Positions 25,449 through 63,265 of a DNA stretch of 64,000 nucleotides are shown here, in pieces. The translations under genes and the position numbers were made by a program. The stretch comes from Candidatus Enterousia sp. (GTDB lineage: Bacteria > Pseudomonadota > Alphaproteobacteria > Rs-D84). Each line of letters begins with the position of its first letter. The first letter of the stretch is position 1. The notes beneath the pieces are model-generated. The model made no database searches and had not been told where the DNA came from. It worked only from the letters and a program-made list of their open reading frames with translations. The stretch lies in assembly GCA_045635825.1 (NCBI GenBank), contig JAZTWM010000006.1, positions 12,265-76,264 on the forward strand, written 5' to 3'.

Positions 25449-25735
25449 GCTTGTTGTTGGTGGGTTATGTATAGTTTGCTGGGAAAGGTGGGATGGTTCT
25501 TTGTGGGCTTGGGCGTTAAATGTAATTCGTGTTTGTGTCGTATAGTTTGGGCGTGATCTTGTGTGTTGTAATCGGTAAGAGGTGATGGCGATTTTGATGT
25601 GGTGGTGTGTCGTTTGGGGAGTTTTTTTATGGTGGTGTAATAATTTATATGTGATTGTGCGTTTCGAAAAAAAAGTCCGGAAAACAGCGGGGTGTAGCGA
25701 TTGCTAAAAGGCGTATAATGTATATTATGTATAGT

Positions 25736-26015
25736 TTTGTGTGCTGTGGGCCACTAAACAATACCTAATATGTGTGCTTGTGTTTGTTGTGTTTTGGTGT
25801 GCTGTGGCCCACTAAACGGATACATAATATGTGTGCTGGTGTTTGTTGTGCTTTGGTGTGCTGTAGCCCACTAAACAATACATAATATGTGTGCTGGTGT
25901 TTGTTGTGCTTTAGTGTGTGCTGTGGCCCACTAAACGTATACATGATATGCGTGTGCTTGTGTTTGTTGTGCTGTGGTCCATTAAACGTATACATAATAT
26001 GTGTGTTTGTTGTCT
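25736..26015. repeat. About five tandem copies of a ~59-bp direct repeat (gtgtgctgtggcccactaaac[a/g]atacataatatgtgtgctggtgtttgttgtgctttg) inside a 1 kb ORF-free, C-depleted spacer
   Basis: Seen directly; unit starts near 25741, 25801, 25860, 25920, 25970, the last copy shortened. No unique spacers, so not CRISPR. Confidence 0.7.
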
Positions 26016-52498: not shown

Positions 52499-52771
52499 TT
52501 GATGCGCTGTGTCGCGCTGATTTTTGCCATGATGATATGTGGGGCTGCAAATGCGGAACTGGTGTCACGTGGCTATGTCGATGCGACGGTCGAGACGCGT
52601 GTTGATACGTCCAAAGATGCCAAGCAAGTGATGACGGGACCGTCTGCCAAGATTGGTGATAAATATTTGTATGAAATATGGCCAAATGCAACAAACGCAC
52701 AGGTTGGTAAGATGTATACAGATGATACAGGATTGGATGATTGGGGCGCGATTCCAGCCGTATGGAAGTAG
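52499..52771 (+). CDS. Small secreted protein, member of a local three-gene family. N-term YVDATVETRVDTS; C-term YLYEIWPNATNAQVGKMY..AVWK.
   Basis: Signal peptide; shares its N-terminal motif with 53015 and its C-terminal motif with 53252. Confidence 0.5.
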   Translation: MMRCVALIFAMMICGAANAELVSRGYVDATVETRVDTSKDAKQVMTGPSAKIGDKYLYEIWPNATNAQVGKMYTDDTGLDDWGAIPAVWK

Positions 52772-53251: not shown

Positions 53252-54520
53252 ATGAAGCGAATTTTATGTTTTTTGGTTGGTATGTTTATGTCTGTGGCAA
53301 ATGCGGCGGAAATGGCCACGATTGGATATGTTCATGAATTATTAGAGCATAATTATGGTGTCTTTGTGCCCATGAATGACACGTTGACCGATGCGGACAA
53401 GGATACGCCGGTCAATATGGAATATCTGTTAACGGTTGTTGATATCGCCAATGAGTTTATTACAGGGGTGCGTACGAACTATGCCGGGACGGTTTATGCG
53501 ACAGATGATGCGGCAGATACGGTTGCAACCATTCAGGCGTATGATACTTTGCTGAAAGAAGTTGAAGCGGTGGATTATGAATATCCGTTTGAAATGACTG
53601 TGTCGGGTGGTTCTTTGTCGTTTACAATATCTGCCCAAGGGGAGTTTTATATAGATTGGGGTGATGGAACGCAGGAAACAATAACCAAGCCAGATACGAC
53701 AAATACGACCTATTCGCATTCCTTTACTGGCTATGATTCACATTCTGTACGTTTGGGTGGGCTGGCAACCGATTACAATGATAATGTTACCACTGCGGCA
53801 ATCAGTTTTTATGGCGATTCCAGTATTTCAACCATCCAAGGTAACCTGAGCAAGATTTTCCCAACATTGGAAAATGGTGAAAACCCACGATTTTATCAAA
53901 CTTTTGCTGAAATGTCTGTGACAGGGGCGATACCGGCAAATTTATTTATAGATTTAGTTGGCGCACCAGTAGAGAATATGTTTTATAGAACTTTTTATGG
54001 CAGTAATGGTTTCCGTGGTGCAATACCGGAATCTTTGTTTGGTACAATGACAGGTGCACCAGCCAAGGCGATGTTTTATGAAACGTTTCGTGGGGTGTCA
54101 CAATTAACAGGTGGTGTTCCGGAAAAATTGTTTTCAAGTATTACAGGTGCACCCGCAGAGAACATGTTTTATGGGACATTTTATGGGCTGTCCAAAATGC
54201 GTGGAACGATTCCATCTGGTGTGTTTGCAGGGATTTCTGGCGCACCTGCCCCAGGAATGTTCAACCAGACGTTTGCCAATTGCAGTAAGTTAAGTGGTAT
54301 TGGTGAAGGGGTGTTTGGAAATCTGTCGGGGGCCGCACAAAATAATATGTTTTACAGGACATTTTATGGTGATAAAAAATTGACAGGATATACCCCAAAG
54401 ATAAATGGGCAATATTTGTATGAAGTTTGGCCAGATGCGACATCTGCCCAGGTTGGTGGTATGTTTGGCAGTTGTAATAAATTGTCTGATTATCGATCTT
54501 TCCCCAGTGTGTGGCGATAA
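53252..54520 (+). CDS. Secreted repeat protein (422 aa) with ~6 tandem ~26-aa repeats (G.IP..LF....GAPA.NMFY.TF.G...L.G), possibly LRR-like; C-terminal YLYEVWPDATSAQVGGMF..SVWR motif shared with 52499
   Basis: Signal peptide MKRILCFLVGMFMSVANA; the internal repeats are visible directly in the translation. Confidence 0.55.
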   Translation: MKRILCFLVGMFMSVANAAEMATIGYVHELLEHNYGVFVPMNDTLTDADKDTPVNMEYLLTVVDIANEFITGVRTNYAGTVYATDDAADTVATIQAYDTLLKEVEAVDYEYPFEMTVSGGSLSFTISAQGEFYIDWGDGTQETITKPDTTNTTYSHSFTGYDSHSVRLGGLATDYNDNVTTAAISFYGDSSISTIQGNLSKIFPTLENGENPRFYQTFAEMSVTGAIPANLFIDLVGAPVENMFYRTFYGSNGFRGAIPESLFGTMTGAPAKAMFYETFRGVSQLTGGVPEKLFSSITGAPAENMFYGTFYGLSKMRGTIPSGVFAGISGAPAPGMFNQTFANCSKLSGIGEGVFGNLSGAAQNNMFYRTFYGDKKLTGYTPKINGQYLYEVWPDATSAQVGGMFGSCNKLSDYRSFPSVWR

Positions 54521-56878: not shown

Positions 56879-56992
56879 AAAAATCCCCTGTTTTCTTGTG
56901 CTATTATACCATAAATAAGTTGACAAAGAAGTTTTATTTGTAATAATTTGTCTAAATTGAAATATAACTGCAAAATTACTAGGAGTTAAGGT

Positions 56993-58165: not shown

Positions 58166-58600
58166 ATGCGTCCAAATGAAATCTTGATGATGTTGCGGTC
58201 GTTAGAGCAGAATCCAGAACAGTTAACCAAACGACACTTGAAAAAGATTTATGCCCTGTTGATTGCAATGGGGCATTATCCAGTATGCCCATGGTGCAAG
58301 GAATATATATACGATATAAACGACTTTACATGGGATCATATTGTGCCGAAAGCCGCGGGGGGGGCGGATTCTGTGGAAAATCTGCAACCAATGCACCGGC
58401 ATTGTAACAACGCAGCCAAGAACGATTGTGTGTATCAAATGGACTATCACTATGACATACAAACTGAATTGGAACATACGATTTTAGATGTGCGTGTGGC
58501 GGTATGCAAAAAATCTAGGACAGAACAAAACGAAAAGAAAAAGAAAGGAAAGTACAATAATAATAAACAACGGGTTAAAACCAGAAGCAGACAAAGATAA
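58166..58600 (+). CDS. Small HNH endonuclease-domain protein
   Basis: CPWC...(31)...DHIVPKAAGGADSVENLQPMHRHCNNAK: Cys pairs + DH...N...H = HNH nuclease core; K-rich tail. Confidence 0.7.
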   Translation: MRPNEILMMLRSLEQNPEQLTKRHLKKIYALLIAMGHYPVCPWCKEYIYDINDFTWDHIVPKAAGGADSVENLQPMHRHCNNAAKNDCVYQMDYHYDIQTELEHTILDVRVAVCKKSRTEQNEKKKKGKYNNNKQRVKTRSRQR

Positions 58601-58602
58601 AA

Positions 58603-59436
58603 ATGAAACACGATAAAATCAGTTTTGCGATTAAGGTGACCAATTGGTGCAATTTAAAGTGCGCGCACTGTTGCGAAAACAGTGGTCCACGTGTTATGCC
58701 CAACTTAATGCCTGTGGCCAAGGTTGAAAAGTATATTGGCGAATTTAAGGCAATGCCATTGTCAAAATGGAATCATTTAGTGTTTACGGGTGGTGAAGCA
58801 ATGGCACCCTATTTCCTGCATAATAACGAATATATGCCGCACTGCTTGTCTATGGCGGGAAATGCAGGTATGTATCCTTTTGTAAAAACAAATGGTATAT
58901 GGGGGGCAGACGAAGCCTTGCGTCATCGTATATTACAGGATTGTGCCAATGTGGCAGAAAAAAATGGAAAAATGACCTCGCTGGATATTTCTGTTGACGA
59001 GTTTCATAAAAACGTGCCTGCCGTTGCCCAGATTATTGTGGATATTGCCAGCAGTGACTATCTAGCACGTCGTGTGCGTGTTTCAATTTGTGGATTGGAT
59101 ACAATCAAATCACATGCACAGTTTAATTATTTAATCGCATATTTAAAATCACGTAACGTGCATGTGTTCCCATGCGAACACGACTTTATCGCGGCATTGG
59201 GTACGGTTGGAACACGTGTGTTGTTTGATTTCAGTACGCCTGTTGCCAGAATGGGACGTGCAAAAACCAAGGGTATGGGCGAGACCATCCCCGATGGTGC
59301 AACAGATAGTGTTTTGGGGAATTGTCTGCAGATAGATAATGATGATATTGCAACATTAAACTATTATCACAAGACACCGGTTAATGGGCGACCTGTTTTT
59401 GATGTGGCGCGTGAATTATTGTTAAAGGTTAGATAA
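58603..59436 (+). CDS. Radical SAM enzyme (CxxxCxxC: NWCNLKCAHCC; GGE SAM-binding motif FTGGEAM), no SPASM domain
   Basis: CNLKCAHC at residues 21-28 and TGGEA ~50 aa later; 277 aa; starts 3 nt after the HNH gene stop. Confidence 0.65.
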   Translation: MKHDKISFAIKVTNWCNLKCAHCCENSGPRVMPNLMPVAKVEKYIGEFKAMPLSKWNHLVFTGGEAMAPYFLHNNEYMPHCLSMAGNAGMYPFVKTNGIWGADEALRHRILQDCANVAEKNGKMTSLDISVDEFHKNVPAVAQIIVDIASSDYLARRVRVSICGLDTIKSHAQFNYLIAYLKSRNVHVFPCEHDFIAALGTVGTRVLFDFSTPVARMGRAKTKGMGETIPDGATDSVLGNCLQIDNDDIATLNYYHKTPVNGRPVFDVARELLLKVR

Positions 59437-59437
59437 A

Positions 59438-60250
59438 ATGCCAAAAAGAATACCAGATGATGAATTGACGCCAGAACAGTTGGCGAAACGTGAAAAACGC
59501 AGACGCTATTTGGCGGAAAATCGCGAAAGGATTAGTGCACAAAGACGTGATTACTATATGCGTAATGCGGAAAAAATACGTGAACGTTCACGCTTGAATA
59601 TGCGTGCCATGTCAACCGAAGAACGCAGAATCAAGGATAGGAAGTATCGTGAAAAGCATGGTGATGAAATTCGTGCCAGAAAAAAACAGCGTTATCTGGA
59701 AACGGCCGAGGTTTGCAAGGCACGTTCTAAGCGGTATTATGCAGGATTGACCCCAGAACAGAAAAAAGAACGTGTGGCCGCCAAACGTGGCAGTGCACAG
59801 GCATGGGTTGAAAGAAATATTGAACAGGTGCAGGCTGCACGACATCGTTATTATGAAGCCCATCGTGAGAAAAAATTGGCGTATGGTGCGAAGTATATTG
59901 AAGAACACATAGATGAATTGCATGCAAAATCGGCCCAGGTGCGTCGTGAAAAAACAGATGCACGTAAAATGTGTCCGGCGTTTCGCTTTACAGAATATCT
60001 GCGATTAAAAGAAAATGCACGTTTTGTTGCAGTGTATCGTCCGCAAACAAACCTGGCACACAAGGCGGCCAAGACATGTGTGGCGATTCAAAATGCAGAC
60101 TATTCATTGTGTCCAATTTGTTCTAATCCAAGAATTGCCGGGGATAAGATGGTGGCGACCTGCCCTATGCCGCATGTGTTCGAATTTGATGATGCCGTTC
60201 AGCAAATTCGCAATTTCGCAAAACAGATTGTCGCAGAAAATAAAAGATAA
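59438..60250 (+). CDS. Highly basic repeat protein (three ~30-aa R..RYY..N.EK/R repeats) with a C-terminal 4-Cys cluster (CPICSNP..ATCPMPH)
   Basis: Low-complexity R/K/E-rich repeats seen in translation; starts 2 nt after the radical SAM gene stop. Confidence 0.5.
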   Translation: MPKRIPDDELTPEQLAKREKRRRYLAENRERISAQRRDYYMRNAEKIRERSRLNMRAMSTEERRIKDRKYREKHGDEIRARKKQRYLETAEVCKARSKRYYAGLTPEQKKERVAAKRGSAQAWVERNIEQVQAARHRYYEAHREKKLAYGAKYIEEHIDELHAKSAQVRREKTDARKMCPAFRFTEYLRLKENARFVAVYRPQTNLAHKAAKTCVAIQNADYSLCPICSNPRIAGDKMVATCPMPHVFEFDDAVQQIRNFAKQIVAENKR

Positions 60251-60261
60251 TAGGATAAAAA

Positions 60262-61491
60262 ATGGATAAAAAGTTAGTGAAGTTCAATTTGGCGGATGAG
60301 ATTAAATCTGAGGCACCAGCGGGGTATGTAGAATCGTTGGAAAAATTAGTTAATGATATCGTGATTCCACGTGAGTTGGAAAAGATGTGCACCCAAGAAG
60401 GTCGTGTGTACAACCATAGTTTTGCAGATTATCAAAAATTGGCACGTGATATTTGGGGTGATACAATATCTGTCACGATAAAAAATGCCCCACATAGGGT
60501 TTTGTGTGGATCTGTGGGCAGTGCAAATCATCAAAATGCAGGTTATCATACATATTGGCGATTGATTGCCGATGATGGTACGCATTCTTATCAGGCACAA
60601 GAACAACATTGTGCGGCCGAATGTATATGTAAAGAGTTGCAAGTATTTGCAAATCAAAATAACGGCAGATTGCAATGGTTGGTTAAGAGTTTGTTGGCAA
60701 AACAAATCGGTTATCAGGCATTGCGTCAAAAAATGGGGTTACAGTCTTTGCATTTAGGGGCAGACGATGAAATAAAATCGATTTATAATATTAAGAAAGG
60801 GGCAACGATTTCTGGGGACGCAATGTTGGTTAATGATGTGTTCTTGAATACTTCGTGGGATAATCAGATGCGTCGAATTGCGGACAAGGTGTCGTATGGA
60901 TTGCGTGCGTTGGCACCCTTGTTGTGTGATGGTTCTGTAATTGATGGCGATAGCAGTAAAAATTGTATTTTTGTTAGTCATCCAAGCCTTAGATGTGGGG
61001 AAGATATTGTGGGTTCCTCTTATTATAAGCATAATGTGGATCATTGTTTGTATCGTAAGAATTGTTTGCTTGATCCGGGTGTGCATGAATTGGCAAGAAT
61101 CATAAATAATAAGATTGAGTTTGGTCGTAGATTGCGTGGTAGCGGTAATGTGGTCGAAACTGAACCTGTTATGCCGGGGGTAACGGGTGCAAAAAATCAT
61201 AGCGATGTTTATGATAATGTAGTGACTTCTACGCCAGAACCATGTGTTCGGTTTCCTTTCCTGCAAAATGGAAATAAAACTTTAATATGGGCGGGGGTTA
61301 CATGCGTTTCATTTGCTGGATTTTTGATGTGTGTTTCATTGGCAAAGCGGTGTGCCGAAGAATTGGTGGCCGAGAGAGAAAAATCACATAAAAAGGAAAT
61401 CGTGATAGATAGGCCAGATTCTGTACATAATCAGCGTGGTGATATTGAATGGCATAATGTATCAAATGCACGTAATGGACACAGCAGATAG
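60262..61491 (+). CDS. Hypothetical protein (409 aa), paralog A of a tandem pair; N-terminal ~75 aa almost identical to paralog B
   Basis: MDKKLVKFNLADEIKS..AGYVESLEKLVNDIVIPRELEKMC..; internal LLCDGSVIDGDSSKNCIFVSHPS motif. Confidence 0.55.
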   Translation: MDKKLVKFNLADEIKSEAPAGYVESLEKLVNDIVIPRELEKMCTQEGRVYNHSFADYQKLARDIWGDTISVTIKNAPHRVLCGSVGSANHQNAGYHTYWRLIADDGTHSYQAQEQHCAAECICKELQVFANQNNGRLQWLVKSLLAKQIGYQALRQKMGLQSLHLGADDEIKSIYNIKKGATISGDAMLVNDVFLNTSWDNQMRRIADKVSYGLRALAPLLCDGSVIDGDSSKNCIFVSHPSLRCGEDIVGSSYYKHNVDHCLYRKNCLLDPGVHELARIINNKIEFGRRLRGSGNVVETEPVMPGVTGAKNHSDVYDNVVTSTPEPCVRFPFLQNGNKTLIWAGVTCVSFAGFLMCVSLAKRCAEELVAEREKSHKKEIVIDRPDSVHNQRGDIEWHNVSNARNGHSR

Positions 61492-61522
61492 TGGCAGAAA
61501 ATCAAAGATAATAGGATAAAAA

Positions 61523-62800
61523 ATGGATAAAAAGTTAGTGAAGTTCAGTTTAGCGGACGGTATTAAATCTCTGGCACCAGCGGGGTATGTAGAATCGCTG
61601 GAAAACTTAGTTAATGATATCGTGATTCCACGTGAGTTAGAAAAGATGTGCGCCCAAGAAGGCCGTGTGTACAATTATAATTTTGCAGATTATCAAAAAA
61701 TGGCACGTGATATTTGGGGTGATACAAAGCTTGTTCGTCTTGTTGTGGGTACTGATGAGTATTATCTGTCGTCGATTGGTGGATTTGGTCATGAAGGGTT
61801 TGGTGGACGCTATACAGAAGAAGTGTTGAACGCAGATGTTGATGGTGTTGTTTATCAGGCCCAGGAACAGGATTTGCCATGGGGCTTTGATAAGTGGCCA
61901 GCAAGGTTAAAGAGATTTGCAAATAAAGATAATCCCAGATTAAGATGGTTGGTTAAGCATTTGTTGGTACAGCAACCAGGATATAAGGAATTGCGTAAAA
62001 AAATGGGGCTGAGTTATGTGTTTTTGGGGGCGATAGATGAATTCAAGGCAATTTATAATGTGCAAAATGGTGGTTATGTTGATTCAAGTGTGCAGAGTGT
62101 TTTTGCGTCAATGATGGATCAGGACCCTTATTACAGAAAATGCAGGCCAGATGTAATTGAAAAATTAGAAATCCAACTGCGTAAATTGGCATCGTTGTTG
62201 TGTGATGGTTCGGTAATTGAGGGCGATGCAAGCAAGAATTGGATTTATGTGGACCACCCTAGTTTCCATAGTCCCTTCTCTTTGATTGGTAGATCGTACA
62301 CTAAATATTCTGTGTATGGTGCGTTGTATGATTATAATACGTTTATGCACTATGGTTCTGATCCGGCTCGTGTGGCCCGTGAAGTAAATAATATTGTTGA
62401 TTATAACAGAGTAGCTAATGGAGTGATGGCGTCTGAGCCACCGGTGCGACCTGTGAAGGGTGTAAAAATTCACAGCGATGTGTACGATGTTGTTGAAGGA
62501 TTGAAAACGGAATCTTTGGTTAAGGATTTGCGTACCTTGGCATCAAAGTTGGATGGCGATGCGGTTTTGGGTGCCGATAAGACAACAAATCATGTTTTTG
62601 TAGATCATCCATCTTTTAAGTATGGCCCAGAATCTGTCTTGGGTGTGGCGAATTATAAATTACCAGCTTCATCCGTTGTTGGGGGTATGAACCGTATCGC
62701 ACGTGCCGGTGGTGTGGATGGGTTTGCGAATGAAATGAATAACAGAATTGCATTCTATAAAAAATTGAAACTGAATCAGACAAATACAAAACAAAGATAG
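61523..62800 (+). CDS. Hypothetical protein (425 aa), paralog B; contains two copies of a KN.I(F/Y)VDHPSF motif
   Basis: Near-identical 5' 240 bp to 60262 gene including 20 bp upstream; then diverged. Confidence 0.55.
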   Translation: MDKKLVKFSLADGIKSLAPAGYVESLENLVNDIVIPRELEKMCAQEGRVYNYNFADYQKMARDIWGDTKLVRLVVGTDEYYLSSIGGFGHEGFGGRYTEEVLNADVDGVVYQAQEQDLPWGFDKWPARLKRFANKDNPRLRWLVKHLLVQQPGYKELRKKMGLSYVFLGAIDEFKAIYNVQNGGYVDSSVQSVFASMMDQDPYYRKCRPDVIEKLEIQLRKLASLLCDGSVIEGDASKNWIYVDHPSFHSPFSLIGRSYTKYSVYGALYDYNTFMHYGSDPARVAREVNNIVDYNRVANGVMASEPPVRPVKGVKIHSDVYDVVEGLKTESLVKDLRTLASKLDGDAVLGADKTTNHVFVDHPSFKYGPESVLGVANYKLPASSVVGGMNRIARAGGVDGFANEMNNRIAFYKKLKLNQTNTKQR

Positions 62801-62859
62801 CAAAAAAACATACTGGACATGGGGTGGATTTTGGTGTATCATCTGCCCTGTCCTTATCT

Positions 62860-62933
62860 GCGGGCGTGGTATAATGGTAGCACGTCAGCTTCCCAAGCTG
62901 AAGACGAGGGTTCGATTCCCTTCGCCCGCACCA
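62860..62933 (+). tRNA. tRNA-Gly (anticodon CCC), CCA encoded
   Basis: GCGGGCG acceptor, anticodon loop TTCCCAA, AGGGTTCGATTCCCT T-arm. Confidence 0.85.
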
Positions 62934-63025
62934 TCCGCCTTCGCTTAGCGCTGCGGCGCGATTTGCGGCGCAACGGTTAGAGAAGTGGATGCTGCGCCAA
63001 AATGAAATGGAGGCGAGCTGATATT

Positions 63026-63265
63026 ATGTTCTATGTGTATATTTTGCAGTCGCAAATTTTTCCAGACAGATTTTATATTGGTTATACGGCGGATTTAAAG
63101 CGAAGGTTGTATGAACACAATAATGGATTGTCAGTACATACAAAGAAATATAAACCATGGTATTTGAAGAATTATGTCGCTTTTCAAGATGAGGAAAAGG
63201 CCAGACGTTTTGAACGGTATCTTAAAACAGGCAGTGGACGGCGTTTTGTAAAGCAACATTTGTGA
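63026..63265 (+). CDS. Small GIY-YIG nuclease-domain protein
   Basis: FYVYIL.....YIGYTADLKRRLYEHN: GIY-YIG catalytic motif; ~80 aa stand-alone form. Confidence 0.65.
   Translation: MFYVYILQSQIFPDRFYIGYTADLKRRLYEHNNGLSVHTKKYKPWYLKNYVAFQDEEKARRFERYLKTGSGRRFVKQHL

Follow-up and report, generated by a model that had tools for sequence, protein, structure and literature searches.

In the 64,000-nucleotide (nt) stretch of Candidatus Enterousia sp. DNA analysed here (GCA_045635825.1, JAZTWM010000006.1 positions 12,265-76,264; hereafter the window, to whose positions all coordinates refer unless another locus is named), two adjacent orphan genes, designated A and B, begin with the same 248-nt direct repeat and are strongly diverged beyond it. 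The two copies of this 5' module within one genome have been homogenised by gene conversion, and the locus as a whole is a polymorphic cassette bounded by conserved recombination arms, a hotspot of allele exchange across Enterousia species. Taken together, the evidence makes it probable that an old partial tandem duplication was followed by recurrent recombination at the module and by cross-species exchange of alleles. The window was compared with related loci numbered L001 to L018, all of the relatives being metagenome assemblies. Among these, L006, L007, L009, L010, L011, L015 and L017 constitute one species-level clade (the L6 clade), within which p270, the 270-amino-acid (aa) gene upstream of A, is 96-99% identical.

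The repeated 5' module and the two genes

A repeat search of the window placed the two module copies 1261 nt apart with 92% identity, making them the longest direct repeat of the whole 64 kb; a 23-mer taken from the repeat occurs exactly twice, against 0.00 occurrences expected from shuffled sequences. A first-pass annotation of the sequence had described near-identical 5' ends of tandem paralogs, including the upstream region and the ribosome-binding site. This was confirmed, with its estimates of about 20 nt upstream and about 75 codons corrected to 43 nt before each ATG and 68 codons. The edges were located with a maximum chi-square change-point test on the A/B codon alignment (1000 permutations), which set the left edge at -43 and the right edge at nt 205 of the coding sequence (60466/61727). 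A and B differ at 34/265 sites to the left of the latter edge and at 457/929 to its right (chi2 112.6, a value reached in 0/1000 permutations), so that the sharp identity boundary perceived in the first-pass annotation, rather than uniform divergence, describes the pair. The features concerned are as follows.

59438-60250, plus strand: p270, upstream 270-aa orphan gene and constant left neighbour, with its last 32 nt inside the repeat.
60219-60466, plus strand: 5' module copy 1, containing the last 32 nt of p270, its stop codon (60248-60250), an AGGA ribosome-binding site (60252-60255) and codons 1-68 of gene A.
60262-61491, plus strand: gene A, 409 aa, with the N module, a diverged body, 14 cysteines, one LLCDGSVI...HPS unit, a predicted C-terminal transmembrane helix and a conserved charged tail.
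60645-60800, plus strand: conserved island RLQWLVK...MGLQ...EIKSIYN of A, matching 61915-62070 of B (72%).
60902-60974, plus strand: repeat-unit core LRxLAxLLCDGSVIxGDxSKNxIxV of A, with copies in B at 62178-62250 (81%) and 62529-62601 (64%).
61480-61727, plus strand: 5' module copy 2, containing a relic of the p270 3' end, AGGA (61513-61516) and codons 1-68 of gene B.
61523-62800, plus strand: gene B, 425 aa, with the N module (residues 1-67), a variable centre (68-330) and a conserved C-terminal R2 (331-425).

The p270 relic in module copy 2 now bears the last four codons of gene A together with its TAG at 61489-61491. The p270 3' end, CAGATTGTC, has become CAGATAGTG after A, which supplies the TAG, and gene A stops inside the relic. 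The junction sequence of this second copy, CAGATAGT, is common to the tandem loci L006, L007 and L010.

Beyond the module the A and B proteins are homologous, with 48% identity over 342 aa (E 1e-82), and the first-pass description of loosely similar remainders with shared islands was borne out, the islands it named being found at 72% and 81%. The B protein holds two units of about 100 aa, R1 and R2 (LRxLAxLLxDGxVIxGDxSKNxIxVxHPS...), its second, weaker LLCDGSVI...HPS unit lying at 62529-62601; the variable centre corresponds to nt ~61724-62512 and R2 to nt 62513-62797. Gene A holds one such unit and the degenerate start of a second, which is broken by a hydrophobic 21-mer (mean hydropathy 1.94; the predicted transmembrane helix at residues ~340-360, nt ~61279-61341) and followed by the charged tail. 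This tail is almost identical even in L11_1, an allele that is 78% identical. Gene A is a 3'-truncated copy left by the old duplication. The two proteins also differ in cysteine content (14 in A against 3 in B). No signal peptide was predicted for A, B was found to have neither a signal peptide nor a transmembrane segment, and a recognised secretion motif is absent from both. The AlphaFold model of A was unusable; that of B was of moderate quality (predicted local distance difference test score, pLDDT, 64) and shows one strand and two helices for the N module, after which come a beta-hairpin region whose variable loop is disordered, a helical segment and two units of helix/three-strand/helix form. 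A Foldseek search with this model returned zero significant matches in PDB and BFVD. The densest run of invariant polar residues in the family lies in the N module.

Gene conversion, copy-number change and hybrid genes

Divergence between A and B, estimated by the Nei-Gojobori method for codons 1-67 and for the remainder, changes abruptly along the gene pair. In the window, synonymous divergence (dS) is 0.19 and nonsynonymous divergence (dN) 0.06 in codons 1-67, against 1.4 and 0.63 in the rest, and the ratio dN/dS (omega) of module copy 1 to copy 2 is 0.33. The corresponding dS values for module and rest are 0.11 and 1.55 in L006, and 0.17 and 1.70 in L007. The same sharp 5' pattern was observed in L006, L007 and L010 with residual identities of 92-96%, and the two module copies of one genome are generally about 90-96% identical.

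Quartet patterns in the 5' 204 coding nt of the five tandem genomes were sorted into concerted, orthologous and cross sites. The ratio was 12:1:1 for the window against L006, 9:5:1 against L007, 9:3:1 against L010 and 7:3:1 against L011. The upstream 40 nt are concerted as well, both window copies reading AATAGG and both L006 copies AGCGGG. Between orthologues of the window and L006, moreover, dS is higher in the module (0.33-0.39) than in the bodies (0.07-0.13), which fits a segment where crossovers resolve and not one under additional site-level constraint.

Conservation of the 5' ends by purifying selection alone, under which constraint on the first 67 residues, on the ribosome-binding site and perhaps on the 5' mRNA would have kept them from ever diverging and recombination would play no part, is improbable. 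It does draw on the low omega of the N module (0.11-0.33), on its density of invariant residues and on the presence of the ribosome-binding site in the upstream part. However, synonymous divergence falls about eight-fold at the boundary (0.19 vs 1.4), and the identity continues across the 3' relic of p270, which no longer encodes p270 in the second copy; recombination is therefore needed. Copies in the same genome also share variants against orthology (12:1), the excess of module over body dS between orthologues is the opposite of what site-level constraint predicts, and an Rfam scan of the module found zero RNA elements.

That a single recent replacement or re-duplication of the 5' end took place in the window genome alone is highly improbable. 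One conversion would look the same if the window were the sole genome, but the pattern recurs in L006, L007 and L010 with differing residual divergence (92-96% identity), the duplication junction is common to several lineages, and the 16 differences among the 204 coding sites of the window modules indicate that the last event was not very recent. The recent partial duplication offered in the first-pass annotation was likewise not upheld. The junction and the A+B order are common to L006, L007, L010, L011 and L012 and the bodies are saturated at synonymous sites, so the duplication must be old. The gene conversion proposed in the same annotation was supported, by the dS contrast and the 12:1 ratio of concerted to orthologous sites as well as by the conversion patches and hybrids described below.

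The flanks of L009 and L007 are 98.2-98.6% identical over about 11 kb, and L009 is without exactly one 1261-bp unit, namely gene A; its sequence changes from A-side to B-side variants within the repeat, between -28 and -24. Recombinant genes were detected by painting each family gene against A and B of the window. A hybrid gene, L1, is A-type over columns ~61-192 and B-type thereafter, the switch falling in the 60645-60800 island, while a second, L13, is A-type up to the HSDVYD island and has a B-type C-terminus after it. L10_1 has an A/B/A structure, with a B-like tract of about 270 nt that is 83-91% identical to its neighbour, compared with 45-67% in other tandem pairs, and L6/L7 share a short extra patch at columns 157-182 (87% identity vs 67% in the window). 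The 60645-60800 island is the site of extra A/B conversion patches and of the hybrid crossover in these relatives. The L009 deletion, the L1 and L13 hybrids and the L10_1 patch represent independent recombinant products in the population.

An assembly or binning artefact, through collapsed repeats or chimeric joins at conserved segments, is the least probable of the explanations considered. All relatives are metagenome-assembled and one clear chimera, P0017, was encountered. Against this, five independent assemblies, produced by different studies, have the tandem arrangement in common with the window, single-copy and nonsense alleles each recur on several contigs, the contigs are continuous from the diverged flanks into the cassette, and the copies differ at 8% of repeat sites, showing that they were resolved and not collapsed.

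Allele exchange between species and selection on the cassette

The block shared with other species was delimited by sliding identity to L006/L007, which is 52-75% across p270, climbs through the 5' module, remains at 86-99% through the rest of A, through B and through the tRNA, and drops to about 79% past the tRNA. Two further features mark this block.

60200-62960, plus strand: high-identity island to L006/L007, 88-99% nucleotide identity, with flanks at 52-80%.
62860-62933, plus strand: tRNA-Gly(CCC), right edge of the block near-identical between species; identity falls just after it.

Between the window and L006/L007/L002, dS of the A and B bodies is 0.07-0.14, compared with 2.0-2.3 for PFK, 0.9-1.2 for the LysM gene and 0.9-1.4 for p270. 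The bodies are 90-99% identical between species whose flanks have dS of 0.9-2.3; p270 diverges smoothly, as a vertically inherited gene would. Within one species the alleles differ by up to 22%. In the L6 clade, B bodies are 86-92% identical between allele classes, against the 96-99% seen for p270, and the L011 A allele is 78% identical to its conspecifics. Its divergent part spans nt ~150-1080 of the gene and is flanked by the 5' module (92-98%) and by the block running from the A tail to the B 5' module (93-100%). The L015 allele is nearest to L002/L008 alleles of other species (95%) and less similar to those of its own (87-92%). Compared with its flanks, the locus thus shows far less divergence between species and more divergence within a species.

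Selection was found to differ along the genes. In B-type alleles the N module has omega of 0.11-0.31 (P<0.05 in 8/9 pairs) and R2 of 0.07-0.6 in most pairs, whereas the B centre (residues 68-330) has omega of 0.6-1.5, statistically inseparable from 1. The A-type body has orthologue omega of 0.2-0.3, significantly below B for the window against L006 (P 0.03). In neutral simulations with 177 differences between two alleles, the frame stayed open in 0.12%, which argues that the B centre is not simply decaying. The family gene of L015/16 (L015 4680-5921) carries an in-frame stop in the conserved YQAQEQ motif (YQA*EQ) on three contigs, where it is called as 103-aa and 306-aa open reading frames (ORFs), and the gene is therefore dispensable at least sometimes.

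The first-pass picture of a conserved N-terminal module on a diversifying remainder is partly right as a description, and its analogy with polymorphic toxins or effectors was not supported. Such a locus, with a trafficking N-module, swappable toxin domains, immunity genes and orphan cassettes, is very improbable here. A conserved N-terminus, a variable rest, alleles exchanged between lineages and a raised omega in the B centre would all suit it and are general properties of such systems. However, zero toxin, immunity or secretion-associated domains were found in Pfam, NCBIfam, PHROGs and PADLOC, no trafficking domain was recognised, no fold match was obtained, and signal peptides and recognised secretion motifs are absent from both proteins. 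The variable parts of A and B are homologous over their whole shared length (330 residues, 48%, E 1e-82) and are not unrelated C-terminal domains, and the C-terminal R2 of B is conserved. The 31 nt between A and B and the tRNA after B leave no immunity ORF. The further copies and orphan C-terminal cassettes for which a search had been proposed were not found by tblastn within the window, and every database member examined lies at one locus.

Several observations weigh against an account built on duplication, module recombination and allele exchange. Counts in the module are small, with 4-14 synonymous differences per pair over the 204 nt, and comparisons among the close L006/L007/L010/L011 are uninformative or lean slightly to orthology. 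The omega of the B centre is near 1 and not significantly above it, and one allele has a nonsense codon, leaving room for a partial relaxation of constraint at the B centre. Finally, near-identical segments of co-occurring strains can be mis-joined by assemblers, though the arrangements recur in independent samples.

Under the favoured account, a lineage-specific gene of Candidatus Enterousia-like Alphaproteobacteria would have undergone an old partial tandem duplication of a 1261-bp unit, whose left end lay at -43 and whose right end fell within the final repeat unit of the ancestral gene. Copy A would hence have been truncated at its 3' end and would later have gained its transmembrane tail, while the bodies diverged to synonymous saturation. 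Homologous recombination between the copies would repeatedly homogenise the 248-nt module, where conversion may be tolerated because a conserved N-terminal domain is encoded. Unequal crossover in the module would remove or add a whole copy, and crossovers at the module and at other conserved islands would generate hybrid A/B genes. The module would also act as the left homology arm for whole-allele replacement between strains and between species, the putative right arms being the A tail with the second module for A alleles, and the R2 end with the tRNA-Gly for B alleles.

From this evolutionary behaviour we infer that the N module serves both proteins as a functional or docking domain, and that the variable centre determines specificity, with diversifying or frequency-dependent selection acting on it. 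A more elaborate scheme, put forward tentatively and considered unlikely as a whole, is that of a two-part specificity system in sub-megabase, obligately partner-dependent gut Alphaproteobacteria, in which a membrane-anchored A and a soluble B would share a docking or catalytic N-domain. Phages, hosts or competitors would impose frequency-dependent selection on the centre, and the conserved 5' module and ends would serve as handles for whole-allele sweeps across species, possibly aided by breaks from neighbouring HNH and GIY-YIG nucleases.

Genomic setting, distribution and known systems

Genes A and B, separated by 31 nt, close a cluster of a LysM-protein gene, an HNH gene, a small radical SAM gene and p270, in which the gaps are 1-31 nt; tRNA-Gly follows B. 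A strong promoter-like site (56920-56947) precedes the LysM gene. Terminator-like sites are absent from p270 to the 3' end of B, with weak matches elsewhere in the cluster. The free-standing HNH endonuclease gene (58166-58600) lies between the LysM gene and p270 and is absent in L002. The 277-aa radical SAM gene (58603-59436), which also lies between the LysM gene and p270 and has weak YydG/viperin-like N-terminal matches alone, is missing from the L006, L007, L009, L010, L011, L015 and L017 loci, all of which keep the A/B family. Neither gene is therefore an obligate partner of the family. A precursor of a ribosomally synthesised and post-translationally modified peptide, with conserved leader and variable core and tied to the radical SAM gene, was considered for A and B and rejected, given the absence of that gene from most family loci and the length of the proteins, which at 409-425 aa are not short.

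On the other side of the tRNA-Gly, between it and the phosphoglucomutase (PGM) gene, lies an ORF for an 87-aa free-standing GIY-YIG nuclease (63002-63265; Pfam E 1.6e-13). It is missing at the same position in L006, L007 and L009, and is therefore an insertion beside the variable locus. In L006 (12127-12172), the last ~20 nt of the tRNA-Gly and 26 nt downstream recur with 97.8% identity about 95 nt past the tRNA, possibly as an att-like scar left by integration or excision. An integrated element at the tRNA-Gly was considered for the cassette itself and rejected, the cassette lying upstream of the tRNA and not downstream.

Repeats of other kinds were noted elsewhere in the window. A tandem array at 25734-25978 comprises 4.1 copies of a T/G-rich unit of 58-59 nt (86-88% matches), each with GGCCCACTAAAC. 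An 84-nt direct repeat with 70% identity (52632-52715 and 54381-54464, 1749 nt apart) probably marks another diverged tandem paralogue pair. In the related loci L001 (13572-17576), L015 (8217-10921) and L017 (7858-9660), many small ORFs of 65-112 aa with no Pfam match are interleaved among the S16, RimM, TrmD and L19 genes, which is unusual for this conserved operon.

A and B form an orphan family restricted to Candidatus Enterousia relatives. It amounts to 16-17 clusters among 5.8 billion proteins, and an exhaustive phmmer search of 1.84 billion representatives gave 4 matches, consisting of family members, one fragment and one spurious repeat protein (P0018). A profile search added zero distant relatives, and zero matches for A or B were obtained in Pfam, NCBIfam, PHROGs and PADLOC (E<=0.1-1), zero relatives of solved structure in a PDB sequence-profile search and zero relatives on viral contigs. 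When metagenomes were scanned using just the N module, L009 was the one locus recovered, and zero new C-terminal partners appeared. One candidate that resembled a new cassette, P0017 (L014 159-530), joins an N module of 59 aa to a histidine-kinase ATPase fragment; because its contig is 538 nt long at 0.9x coverage, it was treated as most likely an assembly chimera. The named carriers are metagenome-assembled genomes of Candidatus Enterousia sp. and one unclassified alphaproteobacterial genome of this kind from sheep rectum. In every retrieved context the family occupies the same locus, after p270, likewise an orphan, and before tRNA-Gly or PGM. Tandem A+B is present in the window, L006, L007, L010 and L011/L012, and a single copy in L001, L002-5, L008, L009, L013, L015/16 and L017/18.

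Enterousia and the order Rs-D84 to which it belongs are gut bacteria that have not been cultured, and their genomes measure about 0.75-1 Mb (PMC12306168). Genomes this small are thought to retain few duplicates. The locus shows homologous recombination at work in them on three levels, namely tandem copies, strains, and species with synonymously saturated housekeeping genes. Rs-D84 biology has otherwise been inferred from metabolism alone, and the orphan pair offers a concrete candidate for study, since polymorphic loci exchanged in this way are usually found where a bacterium meets phages, hosts or competitors. For annotation, it follows that the 5' 250 nt of A/B genes are unusable for orthology assignment.

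Concerted evolution of duplicated bacterial genes by gene conversion is familiar from tufA/tufB and the rRNA operons, where, as here, paralogues of one genome are closer than orthologues over a sharp-edged tract. There, however, the whole gene is homogenised and function is identical, whereas here about 250 of about 1250 nt are affected and the bodies are kept distinct. Conserved ends, a variable centre and horizontal exchange are also features of flagellin fliC, type IV pilins and the Type I restriction specificity subunit HsdS. The A/B locus resembles these in using conserved ends as recombination arms, in a centre that is polymorphic within species and in allele classes that cross lineages, but it shares zero homology with them, and no hsdM/hsdR, pilus or flagellar genes lie nearby. 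With the polymorphic toxins (Rhs, CDI, MafB, LXG) it has in common that the N-terminal part is conserved, the remainder varies and replacement proceeds by recombination; it differs in that its variable parts are mutually homologous and that toxin or immunity domains, an immunity gene and orphan cassettes are lacking.

The closest analogue in behaviour is the bab family of Helicobacter pylori (babA/babB/babC), whose members have near-identical N- and C-terminal regions around a divergent middle, and in which crossovers ~60-240 bp from the start codon, during intragenomic gene conversion, yield chimeras, the loci carrying differing alleles or being empty (PMC4552749). The A/B locus is comparable in several respects: its shared 5' module stops at nt 205, it has given rise to hybrid genes and conversion patches, B-type genes retain a conserved end, and the number of copies differs between genomes. 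Bab proteins, however, act as adhesins in the outer membrane, possess signal peptides and a C-terminal barrel, are encoded at dispersed loci and are subject to CT-repeat phase variation, whereas A and B are adjacent, have no signal peptides, detectable family or fold, or simple-sequence tract, bear zero sequence relationship to Bab and resemble it neither in fold nor in localisation. The mechanism is already known from such systems, and the orphan family and its organism are a new example of it.

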